53,972 bases of DNA from Vicinamibacterales bacterium (lineage in GTDB: Bacteria > Acidobacteriota > Vicinamibacteria > Vicinamibacterales > CAVVIG01). The notes beneath the pieces were generated by a model. The model ran no database searches. It was not told where the DNA came from and was given only the letters and a program-made list of their open reading frames with translations. The DNA lies in the NCBI GenBank assembly GCA_036497895.1, contig DASXIR010000088.1:1-53972 (forward strand). Direction: 5' to 3'. Shown here one piece after another: positions 5,056-39,281 of this stretch. The translations under genes were made by a program, and so were the position numbers. Within the stretch, counting starts at the first letter, position 1; each line of letters begins with the position of its first letter.

Positions 5056-5559
5056 ATGGCTCCAACCGCGCTGCCGATGCCTGCACGCCGGCCAAGCCGT
5101 CCGCTCACGGAGTTGATCGAGCGCGAAAGCCAGCGACGTCAGCGTCGACGGTTCGTCTGGTGGGGAGCAATCGCGCTCATTCCCGTTGTGGCTGCTGTTT
5201 TGTGGTTCGCACTGCGGCCGCGTCCAGTGCCATTCGCGGCACGATTTCGCGTGCAGCCTGTCGCCGAGGGTGATCTCGTGCGCGAGATTCGCGCGACCGG
5301 TCACGTCGAAGCCGTGACGACCGTGCAGGTGGGTGCCGAGATCTCCGGTCGCATCGCGACCGTCGACGTCGATTACAACGCGCGCGTCAGAAGCGGGCAG
5401 GTGCTGGCGCGGTTCGACCGCACGGCCCTGGCGGCGCAACTGGCGCAGACGGAGGCGATGCTCGCGGCGACGCCCGCCGCGCTCGAGCAGGCGCCACCGC
5501 GCGCGATCGTGATATCGCGGGCAAGACGGCACTCTTCACTCGAGCCCTCCAGAACATGA
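5056..5559 (+). pseudogene. truncated HlyD-family membrane-fusion (efflux adaptor) protein, N-terminal ~150 aa only
   Basis: A TM anchor is followed by the typical adaptor N-terminus (GDLVREIRATGHVEAVTTVQVGAEISGRIATVDVDYNARVRSGQVLARFD, then the start of the coiled coil). The reading frame ends at 167 aa, whereas family members are roughly 350-450 aa. No pump or ATPase partner follows. Confidence 0.55.
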
Positions 5560-5604: not shown

Positions 5605-6303
5605 GTGCGAACCCGGGCCGTTGAGGTGCCGTCGTCGCTCGACGCACAGCTCCGGTTGTGGATCTATCGCCACTTTGTAGAGGTCTGTCGCGCGCCAAGC
5701 GTGATCGAGATCGCGAGTCGCTTTGGAATCACATCGAAAGAGGTCGAGGAGGTGCTCGGTCGTCTGGAGAAGGAAGCTGATGCCCTGGTCCTGATCCCAG
5801 GCACTCGCAACATCTGGATGGCCGAACCGTTCTCTGCGGTCCCCACCTCGTTCGTCGTGCGCTCCGGCAACCGCCAATGGTGGGGCAATTGCATTTGGGA
5901 TGGACTGGCCATCCTGGCTCTCCTCGGTCTTGACGGGACCGTGTCGACTGCGTGCCCGCAATCGGCTATGCCGCTGGCCGTAACGGTCGCTGATCGGACG
6001 TTGAAAGACGTTCAGGGCGTTGTCCACATTGCCGTTCCGGCAGCCGACTGGTGGTGCGACATTGGCTTCACTTGAGCCACGATGTCGCTCTTCCGGTCGG
6101 AAGAGGATGTCCACGCATGGTGCGAAGAACGTCAGAGGGCGGCGGGTGCGATCTTCGACGTCGCGACACTGTGGCGGCTGGCTGCTGTGTGGTACGACGA
6201 TCGCCTTGACCTCAACTGGAAGCGCCGGACGATCGGCGAGCGTCAAGCCATTCTTGACGCCGTCGGCCTCAGCGGCCCGTTTTGGCGCTTGACCTCGTCG
6301 TAG
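5605..6303 (+). CDS. MerB-like (alkylmercury lyase family) protein, read through an in-frame TGA at 6073-6075 (candidate selenocysteine)
   Basis: ORFs 5605..6075 and 6082..6303 share one frame and are separated only by TGA plus 2 codons. The joined product matches MerB blocks: NCIWDGLAILALLG (Cys96/Asp99 block), VSTAC (Cys117 block) and FT-TGA-ATMSLFRSEEDVHAW (Cys159/160-FFAS...W block). The start is uncertain (GTG 5605 or GTG 5623). Confidence 0.6.
6081..6111 (+). promoter_or_regulatory. putative bacterial SECIS-like hairpin downstream of the in-frame UGA
   Basis: The upper stem CUCUUCC (6088-6094) pairs with GGAAGAG (6099-6105) around the tetraloop GGUC (6095-6098). G6087 is bulged. The lower helix GAUGUC (6081-6086) pairs with GAUGUC (6106-6111) using two G-U pairs. 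The hairpin begins 5 nt after the UGA, and the loop starts 19 nt after it. Confidence 0.45.
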
Positions 6304-7619: not shown

Positions 7620-7880
7620 TTAGGCATTGCTCAGCGTGTCGGATATCCGTAACTTGATGAAGGCCTGACGCGTGACACCGATGCGTCGGGCTTCTTGATC
7701 GATCGCGCGCAGCAGGTCGACGGGGAAGTCGACGTTGACACGCTGGACTTCGCGGCCCGGACGACGAGCCTTCGACCAATCGACATAGGGAGCCATGTTC
7801 CCGGTGGGATCGTCGACCTGTAGGTCGGCGAGGCGGTCGAACTCTTCAGCCGTGATCATCTTCGGCTGATCCTTCTTCAT
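7620..7880 (-). CDS. brnA: BrnA-family antitoxin (CopG/RHH-like)
   Basis: The C-terminus VNVDFPVDLLRAIDQEARRIGVTRQAFIKLRISDTL is typical of BrnA. ORF 7620..7940 overlaps brnT by 95 nt, so I chose the internal ATG at 7880. Another candidate start is 7859. Confidence 0.7.
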   Translation of the reverse strand: MKKDQPKMITAEEFDRLADLQVDDPTGNMAPYVDWSKARRPGREVQRVNVDFPVDLLRAIDQEARRIGVTRQAFIKLRISDTLSNA

Positions 7881-8133
7881 ACTGCGCTTTCTCGTCCGGG
7901 CGTGCACGGCGGACCGAGATGATGCGGATTGTTTCTTCATGGCGATATGTCACCGTCGCGGTCCACGTTATCCCGCCGATCTGACCCACGATCTGAAAAC
8001 GAGGCTCGTCGATCGACCGCCCTGGGCCTTCAATGCGGTCCGGGTCCAGCCATAAGGCCTGCGCCTCCACGAAATCGATGCCGTGTTTCGCTTTGTTCAC
8101 AGCAGACTTAGCGGCATCGAACTCAAACCGCAT
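7846..8133 (-). CDS. brnT: BrnT-family toxin (DUF497 ribonuclease)
   Basis: The sequence MRFEFDAAKSAVNKAKHGIDFVEAQALW...IRIISVRRARPDEKAQY matches the BrnT/DUF497 pattern. The gene lies upstream of its antitoxin and overlaps it. Confidence 0.8.
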   Translation of the reverse strand: MRFEFDAAKSAVNKAKHGIDFVEAQALWLDPDRIEGPGRSIDEPRFQIVGQIGGITWTATVTYRHEETIRIISVRRARPDEKAQYEEGSAEDDHG

Positions 8134-19391: not shown

Positions 19392-21368
19392 GTGAGTGAA
19401 TCAACCAAGGCCGAGCGGTTGTCGCGGCGCAGGTTTCTGGCGAAGTCTGCAATTGGGGCAGGAGCGGCCGCTGCGCTCACGACCGGCGCTGCGTCGATTG
19501 CCGCCGGCGAGGCGGCGCCCGCCGACGCGAGCGACGCGGCTTCCAACATGCTGCCCATTCGCGTGGCAGATCAATTCACCAAGTCGATCAACGAAGCGCC
19601 AATCGCGTTCGAGTTCGGCGAGAAGGGGCTGACCGGCGCCGAAGTATTCGCCCGTGTCTGCAAGCGGGAAGGGCTGGCCGCTCTGTTCTGCTGTCCCGGC
19701 AACTACACGATGATCAACGCGATCTCCGCCACCGGCATTCCCGCCTACGGTGGTCGGGTCGAAGACATCATGTGCGCGGCCGCGGACGGGTTCTCGCGCG
19801 TCACCGGCGAGGTGGTTGCCACGTCCGGAACCGAAGGACCCGGCTTCGCGAACATGATCATGTCGATCGCCAGCGCGAATCGCGCCCACACGCCGCTGCT
19901 GGTCCTGGCGAGCAATATGGCGATGTCGAACGAAGACCGGGTCGGCGGCATCCAGCAGATGTATCAGCAGGCGACCACTGAGGGCATCCGCAAGTACGGC
20001 AAGCGCATCACGATTCCGAACCGCATCAACGAATACGCGCAAACCGCTTTTCGCGAGTTGAAGAGCGGCGTTCCCGGCGTCGTGCACCTCGACTTCCCGT
20101 CGGAAGTCCACGGCGCACGCTTCAAGGACCCGTCCGAGTTGAAGGACTACTGGGAGGTCGGGAAGTATCGCAGCGACTGCGTGGCGCACCCGTCCGCGAA
20201 GGACATCACCGCGGCGGTGGACCTGATTCAGAAGGCGGAGCGGCCGATGATCGTAGCCGGCCAGGGAGTCTTTCAGCACAAGGGTTGGGAAGCACTGAAG
20301 CGGACCGCCGAAAAGAACGACATCGCCGTGGTCGAGTCCGGACCGGTGCGCGGACATTTCGGCGACGACCATCGGCTGTCCGCGAACCTCGCCTCGGATG
20401 CGCTCGGCAGCGCCGACCTCGTGATCTTCGTCGGACAGTATCTGATGCCGAACGTCGGCGAGTACCGCTTCAACCCTGACGTGAAGGCGATCCGCGTCCA
20501 CCCGGTCGCTGAGGATCTCGGCCGCAACTGGCCGCTCGATCTCGGTCTCGTGTCCGACGAAAAAGCCGCGCTCGAAGCACTGGCGGACGCTTTGCCGAAG
20601 CGCCAGCGCGCGGCGTGGGTCGCCGAACTCGCGGCGGCGCGGAAGAAGTTCGAAGAGGTAAACGACGAGTACTACGCGCTCGGGCTCAAATACAGCCAGC
20701 AGACGGGTGTGGTGCATCCGGCGGTCATCGGCAAAGTGCTGGCCGATTTTCTCTACAAGGGCGATATCCCGAAAGAGCAAACGACGTTCGCCCAGGGTGG
20801 CTGGACTGGTGCGTCGTGGACGCGGCGATGGCTGCGCGCGTATCGACCGGGCCAGATGAACAACTGCCCATATCAGTACTACCCGATCGGTCCAGATGTG
20901 GGCCATCTGCTCGGCGCCGGCGCAGCGATGCAACTGGGCACCGGACCGCAGAAGGCATATCAGGGCGCGCCGGTGTTCGGTTTCACCGGCGATGCCGGCA
21001 TCGCCTACTCGGCGATGGAGTTCGACACGCTCACGAAATATAAGATCCCCGCGATCATGACCGTGTACAACAACAACGCGTGGGGCATGATCACGGCGGC
21101 GCAGGGACCACGATCGCATCACATGTATCTGTTCCAGGAAAACCTGCGCTACGACCGTGTCGCCGAGGCCCTGGGCGCACGTGGAGAGTACGTGACGACG
21201 CCCGAGCAGTACAAGGCCGCCCTTGGCCGTGCCTATCAGGCGGCGACGCGGGAAAAGGCCTCGACGCTGATCAACGTGCAATCAAGCCGCGAGTTCCTGT
21301 CGACCCAGGCGTTTCCTCCGGGTACACCGCGGAATCTCGAGCCCGGCATCACCGCCTACATGCACTGA
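19392..21368 (+). CDS. thiamine-diphosphate-dependent enzyme (acetolactate synthase/benzoylformate decarboxylase-like fold) with twin-arginine signal peptide
   Basis: 658 aa. It has the SRRRFLAKSAIGAGAAAAL Tat motif, an N-terminal Pyr domain (TEGPGFANM...TPLLVLASN) and the ThDP-binding motif GDAGIAYSAMEFDT...TVYNNNAWG. Confidence 0.85.
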   Translation: MSESTKAERLSRRRFLAKSAIGAGAAAALTTGAASIAAGEAAPADASDAASNMLPIRVADQFTKSINEAPIAFEFGEKGLTGAEVFARVCKREGLAALFCCPGNYTMINAISATGIPAYGGRVEDIMCAAADGFSRVTGEVVATSGTEGPGFANMIMSIASANRAHTPLLVLASNMAMSNEDRVGGIQQMYQQATTEGIRKYGKRITIPNRINEYAQTAFRELKSGVPGVVHLDFPSEVHGARFKDPSELKDYWEVGKYRSDCVAHPSAKDITAAVDLIQKAERPMIVAGQGVFQHKGWEALKRTAEKNDIAVVESGPVRGHFGDDHRLSANLASDALGSADLVIFVGQYLMPNVGEYRFNPDVKAIRVHPVAEDLGRNWPLDLGLVSDEKAALEALADALPKRQRAAWVAELAAARKKFEEVNDEYYALGLKYSQQTGVVHPAVIGKVLADFLYKGDIPKEQTTFAQGGWTGASWTRRWLRAYRPGQMNNCPYQYYPIGPDVGHLLGAGAAMQLGTGPQKAYQGAPVFGFTGDAGIAYSAMEFDTLTKYKIPAIMTVYNNNAWGMITAAQGPRSHHMYLFQENLRYDRVAEALGARGEYVTTPEQYKAALGRAYQAATREKASTLINVQSSREFLSTQAFPPGTPRNLEPGITAYMH

Positions 21369-35727: not shown

Positions 35728-35846
35728 GCGTTTTTATTCTATCCGAAAAAATTGCCGCTTCCGGCGGCGCCCATAGCCTGATCGTGCTCGTGCGAGGCAC
35801 GGGCCGCCTTCTTGCACCACGTCGTCACCTAGCACAGGAGGACGCC

Positions 35847-38800
35847 GTGCATCTTGTGGCGGATCGATTCGCAGTGGACGACAACCGCCGGGCGATCGAC
35901 CTGGCGACCGGCAGAGCAGTGACGCTCGTGATCACGACCGCCGGCGGCGTGGCCGAGCAGCTGCGCTGGAGCGCACGATGCGATGTCTTGTGGAGACTCC
36001 GCCATCGCGCACTGGCGCCGCTGGTTGACTACGGCCCGATCGGCGAATCGTCGCGTTTCGAGGCGTGGTCGTCGAACGGCGCGTGGCAGGGAGCTCCCGC
36101 CGCGGCGGTTGTGGCCTTCGACGAAGTGCGTCGCGTGTTCGGGGCGGTAGGCTTATCGCTGGGCGGCTCGCCGGCGTCGGTCAGGACCGGAAATCGCGGG
36201 GAGGTACGGTTGCTACCCGATCCGGAGACCGGCTACCCGTCCGAGGTGAGCGAACCGATCGACGAGCTTTCTCTGCGTCAGCGAGGCATGGCAGTCATCG
36301 ACCGGGCGGTGGTGGCTGCGATCGCCGAGATGTTCGAAGGTCCGCCCAATCATCGCCTGCACGCCACAGCGTTGTGGGGGTCCCGCGGATCGGGAAAGGG
36401 CCTGGCGGTGCGCGAACTGGCGCGCCTGGCGAGACTGCGCGGGTTCGTTCCGGTTACGGCGCGGTTCGTGACCTCGCGGTTCGCGCGGCTCTGGTCGGAT
36501 CGCAGTTTGTTCGTGATCGAAGACGGACCGCCGCAGGACGCGTGGCCGGCGATCCTGCACGCCACGCTGTCGGTGTCGCAGCCGCACGCAGTACTGGTTG
36601 TCGGCCTCGAAGAAGCAGCCGGCATACACGGCGTCGGACTCGATCGCATCCCGCCGGACGATCTCGTCGAGGCGCTTCGCCCCGCGACGCTCGGTCCGCG
36701 AGCCGAACGCACGGCTAGTCGCGTTGCCGAGCGATCACGCGGTCTCCCGGGCGCGTTTGCCAGTTTGCTGGGCATCGAGCTTTCGAACGCGTCGGATTCA
36801 AAGAAATCCCGGCAGTCGCAGGCGGTCATGGCCGCAGAGCACCCGGCGCTCTATGGCATCGGAGGAAATGCCGGCGACGGCGTGGAGACGCCGGCCCTCG
36901 GCGCTTCACCCAATCGTGGTCGGGGGTGGGCGTCGCCGGGCGAGTTGACGATGTTGCGCAGGCGGATGGATGGCGCGATGACCCAGATTGCTGCCGGAAG
37001 GCACGCCCCGGGCATGCGGCAACTGCGCCACTGCATCGGCGCGCTCGCGAGGCGCGACGATTGGACGGAGGCGTGCCGGGGAGCGATCGAGTTGGGTTGG
37101 ACGCTCTTACGTCGTGGCCGGACCCGCGAGGCTCAGAACGCGATCGAGAATGCCCGGATCTACGCCAGCCACAGCGACTCCTCGAAATTGCTGTTGGAGG
37201 TCGCGCTGCTCAGTGGCGAAGCGTGGATCGACTCGGCACGACTCGACGAGGCGGAACGGGTGCTTGGGACGGAGCTCGTGTCGGCGCGAGCGGCACGCGA
37301 TCACGAATGCGCCGCGCGCGCCGGTGTGTCGCTGGCCCGATGCCTGTTCTGGCGAGGCCGGTACGCCGACGCGGATGTGGCGCTGAGCGCGATTGGCGAC
37401 AAGGATGCGGTGGCGATACGGTCGCGTCACGCGCGTCAGGCGGCACGGATCGCGATCGGCCTGCGCGACGTCGGCAGGGCGATGACCCTGATCACCGGCG
37501 CATGCGAGCAGGCACGCGCGATCGCCGATCCGGCGCTCGTCGCCGCCGCCTCGTGCACGGCCGCGTTCGTGCACCTCGCGGTCGGCGACCTCGACGCCGC
37601 CGCTCGCGACGTCGATGAATGCCGCACCGCCGCCCGAGCCGCCCACGATCCGCTGCGCGCGGTCCGTGCCGTTTTGTTGTTGTGCGAAATCGAGCGACGG
37701 CGCGGATCGCCTTCGGCGGTCGCGGCGCAAGTGCGACGCCTTGTCCGGATTGGCCAAACACTGCCGCCAATTCTGAGAGCCCGTGCGGATCTCGCCGGCC
37801 TGGTAATGTCAGGCGACCCGAATCCGGTCGGCCTCGTCCAGCGCCGCGCCGCGGCCACTGGCCTCGACGCACTTTCGCTCCTCGTCTCAGCACCGCCGCG
37901 TCTGGATCTGACGCGCACGGCCGATCCGATCGCAGACGATATCGTTGGCGTGCTGCGTGCCTGCCAGACCGCTGAAGACGAGGTCACGGTGCTGAAGGAT
38001 GTCTGCGCGCTGGTCCGCGCCCAGATGCGAGCGGCCTCGGTCGCCTTCGTCGTTCCGAACGACGGGCGAGCCGGCATCCTGACCTGCGACGGCTCGCGTC
38101 TGGACATCGAGATCGGCATGCGTGCGCTGGCGGCCGGCGTCACCTTGCCGCCGCACCGCCACGACGACCGGATCGACGCGGCGGCACCGGTCCACTATGG
38201 CGGCGCATTCATCGGGGCGCTGTGCGCCCGCTGGACCCTGGGCTCGACCGAAGACCTCTCGCGCGCGCCGATTGTCCTGACCACGAGTGCGGCAGCCGCG
38301 GCGCCCATCCTGTCGGCGGCGCTGGCCCGCCGCGAGCAGGCAAGCGCGGCGCCGAGCGAGCTTCTGGGCGTGACGCCGTCCATGAACGAACTCCGCTCCA
38401 GTGTCGAGCGCGCCGGCGCGGCGCCGTTTGCCGTCCTCGTCGATGGCGAAAGCGGCAGCGGCAAGGAACTGGTGGCGCGTGCCATTCATCGTGCCGGTCC
38501 GCGGCGCGATCGTCCGTTCTGCACGCTCAACTGCGCGGCGCTGCCCGATGACTTGGTCGAGGCTGAACTGTTTGGTCATGCGCGCGGCGCATTCACCGGC
38601 GCCATTGCCGATCGCCCGGGCGTGTTCGAGGAAGCCAACGGCGGCACGCTCTTCCTTGACGAAATCGGCGAACTCTCGCCACGCGCGCAGGCCAAAATCC
38701 TCCGCGTCATCCAGGAGGGAGAACTGCGCCGCGTCGGCGAGAACGTCACGCGTCGCGTGGACGTCCGGATCGTCGCCGCCACCAATCGCGATCTGCCCGC

Positions 38801-39281
38801 GGAAGTCGTGGCCGGACGGTTTCGCCTCGACCTGCTGTACCGCCTCGACGTGGTCCGTGTACGCGTGCCGCCACTGCGGGAGCGTCGCGAGGACATCCCG
38901 GTATTGGCGGATCACTTCTGGCGCGAATCGACCCGGCGCCTGGGCAGCCGCGCCAGCCTTGGCTCGGCAACGATGGCGGCGCTCGCACGTTATGATTGGC
39001 CGGGAAATGTGCGGGAGTTGCAGAACGTGCTGGCGGCGCTGACCGTTCGGAGCCCCAAGCGCGGCGTCGTGCCGCCTGAAGCGCTGCCGGCTTCATTCAC
39101 CGACGTTCAGAGGCGCGAAACCTGGCGCCTGGACGAGGCACGCAGGACGTTCGAATCACGATTCATCCGGGCTGCGCTGGTCCGGAGCGGGGGGCATCGC
39201 GGGCGGGCCGCCGCCGAACTCGGCGTCACGCGACAAGGTCTGACCAAACTGATCACCCGGCTCGGGATTGGCGCCGAATGA
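35847..39281 (+). CDS. sigma-54-dependent transcriptional activator with ~800-aa N-terminal extension (Walker-A-like module + TPR-like repeats + GAF-like region)
   Basis: The GTG at 35847 is preceded by AGGAGG 5 nt upstream. The C-terminal third has [15 protein letters not shown] (Walker A), [14 protein letters not shown] (Walker B), an Arg-finger region and a Fis-type HTH ([16 protein letters not shown]). A second P-loop-like GSRGSGKG lies at 36378-36401. Confidence 0.85.

Follow-up and report, generated by a model that had tools for sequence, protein, structure and literature searches.

The stretch of 53,972 nt analysed here (the window) belongs to contig DASXIR010000088.1 of a Vicinamibacterales bacterium, and all coordinates refer to its forward strand. 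At positions 5605–6303 it contains what is very probably a single gene for a 232-residue enzyme of the MerB (organomercurial lyase) fold, in which the UGA at codon 157 is read as selenocysteine (Sec). Two open reading frames (ORFs), 5605..6075 (156 aa, GTG start) and 6082..6303 (73 aa), share one frame here and are separated by nothing but the TGA at 6073–6075 and the codons GCC ACG, an arrangement pointed out in a preliminary description of the locus, which had proposed a candidate MerB-family selenoprotein with UGA at the catalytic Cys. That proposal is upheld by a TGA conserved among relatives, by homologues with TGC at the same column and by a hairpin of the Sec insertion sequence (SECIS) type. 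The locus is thus one gene with a MerB fold, in which the TGA is conserved, forms a Sec/Cys pair with homologues at the catalytic position and is linked to a SECIS-type element; from these features we infer with high confidence that Sec is indeed inserted at the UGA.

To follow the TGA across relatives, we scanned one genome per GTDB species and found a relative of the gene in 231 genomes, the best 80 of which were examined; together with the window copy, these 80 species-level relatives form a set of 81 sequences. The tblastn matches in the 80 genomes extended from about query residue 10 to residue 230, through the stop, and each locus had exactly one in-frame stop, always in the same column and always TGA (80/80). 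The terminal stops of the same 80 genes were TGA in 52, TAG in 18 and TAA in 10. At the terminal-stop frequency, the chance of finding TGA in all 80 (0.65^80) is about 1e-15, a figure that ignores the relatedness of the sequences. Because TGA terminates 52/80 (65%) of these very genes, a reassigned genetic code is excluded. By their record titles, the best 80 carriers comprised 47 Actinomycetota, 17 Acidobacteriota, 11 Chloroflexota, one Calditrichota, one KSB1 and three unclassified genomes. Among the assemblies that carry the gene are DASPUZ01, DATLQA01, JBFHAT01, CAVPCM01, CAVVAK01, CAWBAK01 and CAVXCJ01, the last with a 4.36-Mb contig. One Actinomycetota metagenome-assembled genome (MAG), JACDCJ01 (MGR_bin305), carried two gene copies on different contigs (L007 and L010), both with the TGA and with near-identical SECIS elements. 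A protein search of 5.8 billion proteins returned 181 homologous clusters; among the best 120, nearly all were 146–160 residues long and covered 62–64% of the query, about 115 of the 120 stopped at the same motif, ...WW(R/D)DIGFT, and no read-through version was found among the matches. The window locus itself, with its TGA retained, recurred at 99.7–99.9% identity in two independent metagenome samples. On these near-identical contigs the JGI gene calls split the gene into products of 149 and 73 aa, just as the preliminary description expected of gene callers, the first product starting from the alternative GTG at 5626 in place of the GTG at 5605.

The residue before the Sec position was Thr in 63 of the 81 sequences, Ala in 10, Ser in five, Asn in three and Cys in none, and the residue after it was Ala, Arg or Lys, leaving no equivalent of MerB Cys160. 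The preliminary description had further suggested that a Cys six residues upstream (C-x5-U) would allow a selenenylsulfide. This did not hold: Cys151 occurred only in the window copy (1/81), most of the remaining 80 sequences having Asp, Glu, Lys or Arg there, and a C-x5-U selenenylsulfide was rejected as a feature of the family. Apart from a unique Cys151, and Ser in place of Cys at position 120, the window copy appears intact and typical.

The part of the gene downstream of the TGA behaves as coding sequence. The number of open codons after the TGA was 72–135 (73–81 in most of the 80 loci), and the mean pairwise differences at codon positions 1, 2 and 3 were 0.38/0.33/0.55 for residues 170–229 versus 0.34/0.31/0.55 for the upstream core; given these matching patterns, the downstream coding signature is the same as the upstream one. 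We then searched the C-terminal 75 residues against 1.84 billion cluster representatives and examined the best 150 matches. Short pieces, mostly beginning at the Met right after the TGA, made up 115 of them and are split-off halves of TGA-interrupted genes, while 17 had at least 195 residues and were nearly all full-length family members. At least 10 full-length homologues with 30–45% identity had Cys at the TGA column, for example in the context ...T-C-A-T-x-L-L-F-R-S-E..., and the codon was TGC in all four Cys forms whose DNA was read. At the N-terminus of three Cys forms (P0149, P0217 and P0264; 331–386 aa), about 150 additional residues resemble an acetyltransferase, and these three are putative MerB-like fusion proteins. 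A further full-length homologue, P0252 (235 aa), has lost the equivalent of Cys96 and has Ala at the Cys/Sec column, with the L-F-R-S-E region kept. Such a joint loss is expected if the two residues cooperate, and P0252 is probably a non-catalytic paralogue.

For the Pfam and phmmer searches, Cys was substituted for the TGA in the read-through translation. The resulting protein of 232 residues matched PF03243 (MerB) at E=8.9e-29 (100.5 bits versus a gathering cutoff of 27), and this single match covered residues 76–197 and profile positions 1–125 of 126, so that it spans the TGA at residue 157 and supports the earlier claim of a MerB-like product running across it. Against the PDB, phmmer matched only MerB2 (5c17, E=1e-5) and MerB (1s6l and variants, E about 2e-3); in these alignments NCIWD faced WCALD, the site of Cys96 and Asp99, and the TGA column fell on the catalytic Cys of MerB2 and on Cys159 of MerB. 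The same register, with the TGA column on Cys159 (MerB2 5c17; MerB 1s6l and 3f2g), was obtained with a profile built mostly from genuine Cys-containing homologues, which is therefore free of bias from the Cys substitution; with this profile MerB2 5c17 was matched at 5.4e-20. The preliminary description had placed the TGA on the Cys159/Cys160 pair, and the sequence and profile alignments agree in assigning it to Cys159.

Residues N95, C96, W98 and D99 were invariant in the 81 sequences, and Cys117 was kept in 80 of them, the window included. The family thus has three residues of the signature used for functional MerB (Pitts & Summers 2002; Christakis et al. 2021, PMC8261052), namely Cys96, Asp99 and Cys117; the fourth, Cys159, is replaced by the TGA, read as Sec, in 81/81 sequences. 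Sec at this column is chemically analogous to Cys, and screens based on the signature would reject the family. Below their cutoffs, too, were the NCBIfam MerB models NF009710 (38.5 versus 193 bits) and NF033555 (30.8 versus 200 bits), and no NCBIfam model reached its cutoff with the window protein. A C117-P-x-C120 motif was present in 71/81 Sec-type members, the window having Ser120 (codon 5962–5964). Canonical MerB is known for the buried Cys117 only, and the motif might be a second metal-handling or redox site.

An AlphaFold model was made for the Cys-form homologue P0178, which is 38% identical to the window protein, with fragments added for alignment depth. The model had a mean pLDDT (predicted local distance difference test score) of 96.3 and formed a single globular domain across the Sec position, the part after that position lying within the same fold at pLDDT >95. 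Its N-terminus consisted of three helices followed by a beta-hairpin, and it aligned to MerB2 and MerB over the full length. The only significant PDB matches found by Foldseek were MerB2 (template modelling (TM) scores 0.64/0.70, E=1e-10) and MerB (TM scores 0.55–0.65, E about 1e-9). In the read-through product of the window, weak Pfam matches to the winged helix-turn-helix (wHTH) families LexA_DNA_bind and GntR fell at residues 19–57.

Downstream of the TGA, where the preliminary description had called for a bacterial SECIS prediction, we found a canonical bacterial-type hairpin. The upper stem-loop, CUCUUCC-GGUC-GGAAGAG (6088–6105), begins 12 nt after the UGA, with the apical loop GGUC at 6095–6098 starting 19 nt after it, and the 48-nt stretch has a minimum free energy (MFE) of −18.8 kcal/mol (z = −2.05). 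Published criteria for the bacterial SECIS (bSECIS) are a loop of 3–9 nt, an upper stem of 4–16 bp, a G in the first two loop positions, a distance of 16–37 nt from the UGA and an MFE of at most −7.5 kcal/mol (PMC13188914, Fig. 2 legend). The window copy stays within all of these limits: its GGUC loop measures 4 nt, the upper stem 7 bp and the spacing 19 nt, and the 48-nt stretch folds at −18.8 kcal/mol. All four published criteria were satisfied by 75/81 sequences; the loop was GGUC in 73 and the spacing 19 nt in 74.

The hairpin is also conserved beyond what its codons require. A 10-nt core, TTCCGGTCGG, located 16 nt after the UGA, is nearly invariant in the 81 sequences. Synonymous entropy was 0 bits at Phe163, 0.17 at Arg164 and 0 at Ser165, versus 1.5–2.0 bits at the 4- and 6-fold columns used for comparison, namely Ser, Arg, Leu, Pro and Ala columns that are just as conserved in the rest of the gene; Ser165 was TCG in 81/81 and Arg164 CGG in 97%, and third-position differences, otherwise 0.55, were down to 0.15 within the core of the hairpin. 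This near absence of synonymous variation indicates a constraint at the RNA level beyond the needs of the protein. In the proposed structure 87.4% of cells were standard pairs, versus 37–57% when the partners were slid by 1–3 columns, both-sided changes occurred in 6/12 pairs, and the covariation score was higher than in all 500 shuffles. Pair 18:31, for instance, was C-G in 66 sequences, G-C in 11 and unpaired in one; in Terriglobia the switch combined a synonymous Leu change (CTC to CTG) with Glu to Gln (GAG to CAG). As a control, the four Cys-form genes kept the peptide F-R-(S/T/D)-E but encoded it with CGC or AGG and with AGC or other codons; they had no GGUC loop, and the equivalent stretch folded at only −3 to −10 kcal/mol. 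Within the 54-kb window the exact core occurred once. Two occurrences with one mismatch, at 20094 and 23256, had neither an in-frame TGA nor a stem and were rejected.

Like the E. coli fdhF-type SECIS and the bSECISearch consensus, the element lies within the coding sequence right 3' of the UGA and has a small apical loop starting with G-G/U. It differs from bacterial SECIS elements in being unusually invariant across phyla and in doubling as the F-R-S-E codons, and from fdhF in that the upper stem of the window copy lacks a counterpart of the bulged U and a bulged G lies between the lower and upper stems instead. A GGUC loop is found in the minimal fdhF element, too, at about 11 nt past the UGA.

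We considered whether the UGA could be passed, or used, without Sec. The hairpin could aid decoding of the UGA by a near-cognate tRNA (Trp, Cys or Arg), or the UGA could be a regulated terminator with the 156-residue protein as main product. In its favour, we found no tRNA-Sec in the window or the flanks and no sel gene among the scanned window genes, and one sequence (L083:255-950; JGI 3300064045, protein P0138) has TGG (Trp) at the Sec column with a perfect SECIS hairpin, CTCTTCCGGTCGGAGGAG, kept. However, the Trp form is one 1-kb contig against more than 80 TGA forms, and reflects a sequencing error or else a very recent change of TGA to TGG. The homologues have Cys, not Trp, at the catalytic position, and the loop, stem length, spacing and energy in 75/81 sequences match the consensus of an element read by SelB. 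As for a regulated terminator, a MerB fold ending at residue 156 would miss a catalytic residue and part of the core. We therefore give non-Sec read-through or regulated termination only a small chance.

Slimmer still is the chance that two genes are present, with the 156- and 73-residue proteins made separately, the second from the ATG at 6082, and assembling into a split MerB. Gene callers do annotate two ORFs, an ATG is the third codon after the TGA in 72/81 sequences, and the 115 short pieces among the best 150 C-terminal matches are stand-alone calls. Yet the other 9/81 have ATC or ATT at this codon and lack ATG, GTG or TTG in the six codons that follow the TGA, and a Shine-Dalgarno-like motif was seen in only 20/81, so that an independent start of a second gene is not a conserved feature. 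Moreover, the frame is constant and the interruption is always exactly TGA, never TAA or TAG; the two codons that link the TGA to the Met are conserved at the protein level, with Thr, Ser or Asn at position 159; and the stop sits on the catalytic Cys column, so both pieces would miss the catalytic residue.

A plain pseudogene, in which a nonsense mutation struck a decaying merB-like gene, would be compatible with one in-frame stop in one sequence, but it is refuted by the comparative data and has a negligible probability: the same TGA is found in 80/80 species across phyla, the 80 relatives show none of the scattered stops or frameshifts that the preliminary description had named as the mark of decay, the downstream part is under coding constraint, the catalytic residues are invariant, and the window locus recurs with its TGA in other samples. 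Equally negligible is membership in the known SaoL selenoprotein family, which shares PF03243 and Sec at the Cys159 equivalent and gives a weak NF040728 match (E=2.8e-4), but whose model scores the window protein at 20.9 bits against a cutoff of 140 and from which the family also departs in motif, C-terminal length, neighbourhood and hosts, as detailed below.

With Sec decoding of a single gene as the preferred explanation, the family can be placed among the MerB-like proteins. The preliminary description knew of no established MerB-family selenoprotein; this part has to be corrected, since SaoL (NF040728), a MerB-like organometallic lyase selenoprotein, was already described in 2022 (Haft & Gwadz 2022, bioRxiv 10.1101/2022.07.06.499078). 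SaoL has a C-U motif and belongs to a nine-gene SAO (selenocysteine-assisted organometallic) locus of strict anaerobes such as Clostridioides, Brachyspira and deltaproteobacteria (10.1101/2022.07.06.499078). It is listed in selenoproteome reviews of 2022 and 2026, and the 2026 table has only SaoL under this fold. The present family resembles SaoL in its PF03243 fold, in UGA/Sec at the Cys159 position, in the Cys96 and Asp99 equivalents, in the truncation at the UGA in databases and in the existence of Cys homologues. In contrast to SaoL, it has T-U (also A-U, S-U or N-U) in place of C-U, about 75 rather than about 50 residues after Sec, and hosts that are MAGs of Actinomycetota, Acidobacteriota and Chloroflexota rather than strict anaerobes. 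No nine-gene SAO neighbourhood surrounds the gene, whose neighbours are unrelated housekeeping genes, and none of the scanned neighbours was classed as a transporter.

Canonical MerB (plasmid R831b; PDB 1s6l and 3f0p; NF033555 and NF009710) shares with the family the Pfam family, the fold, the N-terminal helical domain, and Cys96, Asp99 and Cys117 at the same numbering. The family differs from it in having Sec for Cys159, no Cys160, an extra C-terminal helical segment and no mer linkage, and the identity between the Cys-form model and MerB is only about 16–18%. MerB2 of Bacillus megaterium MB1 (5c17) is the closest solved structure by both sequence and fold, with 26% identity to the Cys-form model, and likewise has a single catalytic residue at this site, in a G-T-C-K context versus F-T-U-A/K here. 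However, that residue is Cys, not Sec, and position 99 is Ser in MerB2, an enzyme of low activity (PMC10114901), whereas Asp99 is present in 81/81 sequences of our set. We found no description of the family in the open-access full-text literature on MerB-type selenoproteins, though an earlier description elsewhere is possible, and the NCBI, JGI and ENA records still truncate the gene at the UGA. Apparently, the family is an undescribed second Sec-containing clade of the MerB family, distinct from both SaoL and canonical MerB.

We propose the following mechanism. The hairpin 12 nt after the UGA, with its upper stem of 7–9 bp and GGUC loop, would work as a bacterial SECIS and recruit SelB, with GTP and Sec-tRNA(Sec), to a ribosome paused at the UGA; after Sec insertion, translation would run on through the remaining 75 codons. 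The active site would then be the MerB catalytic triad with one sulfur replaced by selenium, formed by Cys96, Asp99 and Sec157. In MerB, Cys96 and Cys159 coordinate the Hg of R-Hg+, a proton from Asp99 cleaves the Hg–C bond, and Hg(II), held on two thiolates, is passed to MerA (PMC10114901). By analogy, an organometal substrate, with an organomercurial such as methylmercury as the most plausible case, may have its metal coordinated by Cys96 and Sec157, and Asp99 may protonate the carbon, so that the hydrocarbon leaves and the metal stays held between S and Se. With no mer operon and no family-wide conserved neighbour, the substrate may be an organomercurial or another organometal. For organometal lyase chemistry as such, which is deduced by analogy with MerB, we put the chances at about even.

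Several points weigh against this interpretation. All relatives come from MAGs, none from an isolate. Searches for tRNA-Sec in the 54-kb window and the 80 flanks came back empty, and the roughly 25 window genes that were compared with Pfam proved to have housekeeping functions only, with selA, selB and selD missing among them; the tRNA-Sec negative carries no information, as sel genes may lie apart from the genes that they serve. The hairpin overlaps the strongly conserved residues L-F-R-S-E-E, so the nucleotide conservation is in part driven by the protein, which leaves synonymous sites and a control comprising just four Cys forms to carry the SECIS argument. The structural model comes from a 38%-identical Cys-form homologue and not from the window protein. 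With regard to the chemistry, neither mer genes (merA, merR, merT and merP) nor other metal-handling genes are conserved beside the gene, so the context gives the substrate assignment no support. Finally, selenolates have a very high affinity for Hg(II), and because they bind it so strongly, the question arises how the product would be released without MerA; a scavenging, low-turnover role is possible.

The positions of the gene and its parts are collected in Table 1.

Table 1. Features of the proposed selenoprotein gene in the window
Feature	Position	Strand	Remarks
Complete selenoprotein coding sequence (proposed)	5605..6303	+	232 codons and terminal TAG 6301–6303
N-terminal helical, winged-helix-like domain, residues ~1–75	5605..5830	+	as in MerB proteins; weak wHTH Pfam matches
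Cys96 codon TGC (5890–5892) and Asp99 codon GAT (5899–5901)	5890..5901	+	motif N-C-I-W-D
Cys117 codon TGC	5953..5955	+	equivalent of the buried structural Cys117 of MerB; VSTAC aligned with VSSHC
In-frame TGA, proposed Sec157 codon	6073..6075	+	position of MerB catalytic Cys159
C-terminal 75 codons after the Sec codon	6076..6300	+	part of the MerB fold and helical extension, motif TM.LFRSEE.V..W ... GL.GPFW
SECIS-type hairpin	6081..6111	+	within the coding sequence; lower stem 6081–6086/6106–6111, bulged G6087, upper stem 6088–6094/6099–6105

The surroundings of the gene vary across the family. Neighbours were clustered after ORF picking based on GC content at third codon positions (GC3), a procedure that often settled on the shadow ORF antisense to the gene; no neighbour shared by the whole family came out, the largest neighbour cluster being present at 15/81 loci. 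A scan for TGA-interrupted frames of high GC3 was discarded, as it gave many false positives from shadow frames and missed the merB-like gene at the chosen threshold. The neighbours identified within sub-clades were rpsD, a DHDPS-family gene, an acyltransferase and an ADP-ribosylglycohydrolase. In one Actinomycetota sub-clade (L009, L011, L013, L020, L030, L031, L034 and L049), the gene lies 3.5–6 kb downstream of tRNA-Pro(CGG) and near rpsD, which is a locally conserved chromosomal position in that sub-clade.

Genes for a P-type ATPase, a Usp protein and an epoxide hydrolase, together with a BrnT/BrnA pair, are its neighbours in the window, where an Rfam scan at gathering thresholds detected two tRNAs only. 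Directly upstream of the merB-like gene, a 167-residue ORF at 5056–5559 (+) has no Pfam match above the cutoff and ends prematurely; with a transmembrane helix followed by a lipoyl-like motif, it resembles the N-terminal part of an HlyD-type membrane-fusion efflux adaptor and may be a gene remnant. The interval from the epoxide hydrolase gene to a tRNA-Val contains, at 7620–8133 (−), two overlapping ORFs: one for a BrnT-like toxin of 95 aa, assigned to PF04365 on the identical JGI contig, and one of 106 aa for a putative BrnA-type antitoxin. Farther away, at 35784–39281 (+), a 1165-aa sigma-54-dependent activator with an extra N-terminal AAA_16-type region adjoins ABC permease genes.

Cut at the UGA, the gene is present in over 100 protein clusters and in no fewer than 80 species-level genomes (probably about 230), where it is annotated as an 'organomercurial lyase' or 'hypothetical protein' of 146–160 residues and a separate fragment of about 70 residues. 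The near-invariant SECIS core could serve as a probe for more members. According to a recent review, aerobic bacteria seldom retain selenoproteins (PMC13188914). The present family, which occurs mostly in soil members of Actinomycetota, Acidobacteriota and Chloroflexota, would make Sec decoding easy to recognise in these phyla. In the main merB census, where Cys159 was a requirement, Acidobacteria had no MerB listed (PMC8261052); filters of this kind drop the family. A selenoenzyme family outside mer operons, whose Cys-Asp-Sec site offers a high-affinity route for cleaving or capturing methylmercury or other organometals in soil phyla, and which both merB and selenoproteome surveys have missed through truncation at the UGA, is a tentative picture that we consider rather unlikely in its entirety. 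The Se/S pair at the metal site should hold Hg(II) very tightly, which leaves turnover versus sequestration in question where MerA is lacking, and if these enzymes do cleave methylmercury, the demethylation potential of soils would be underestimated.

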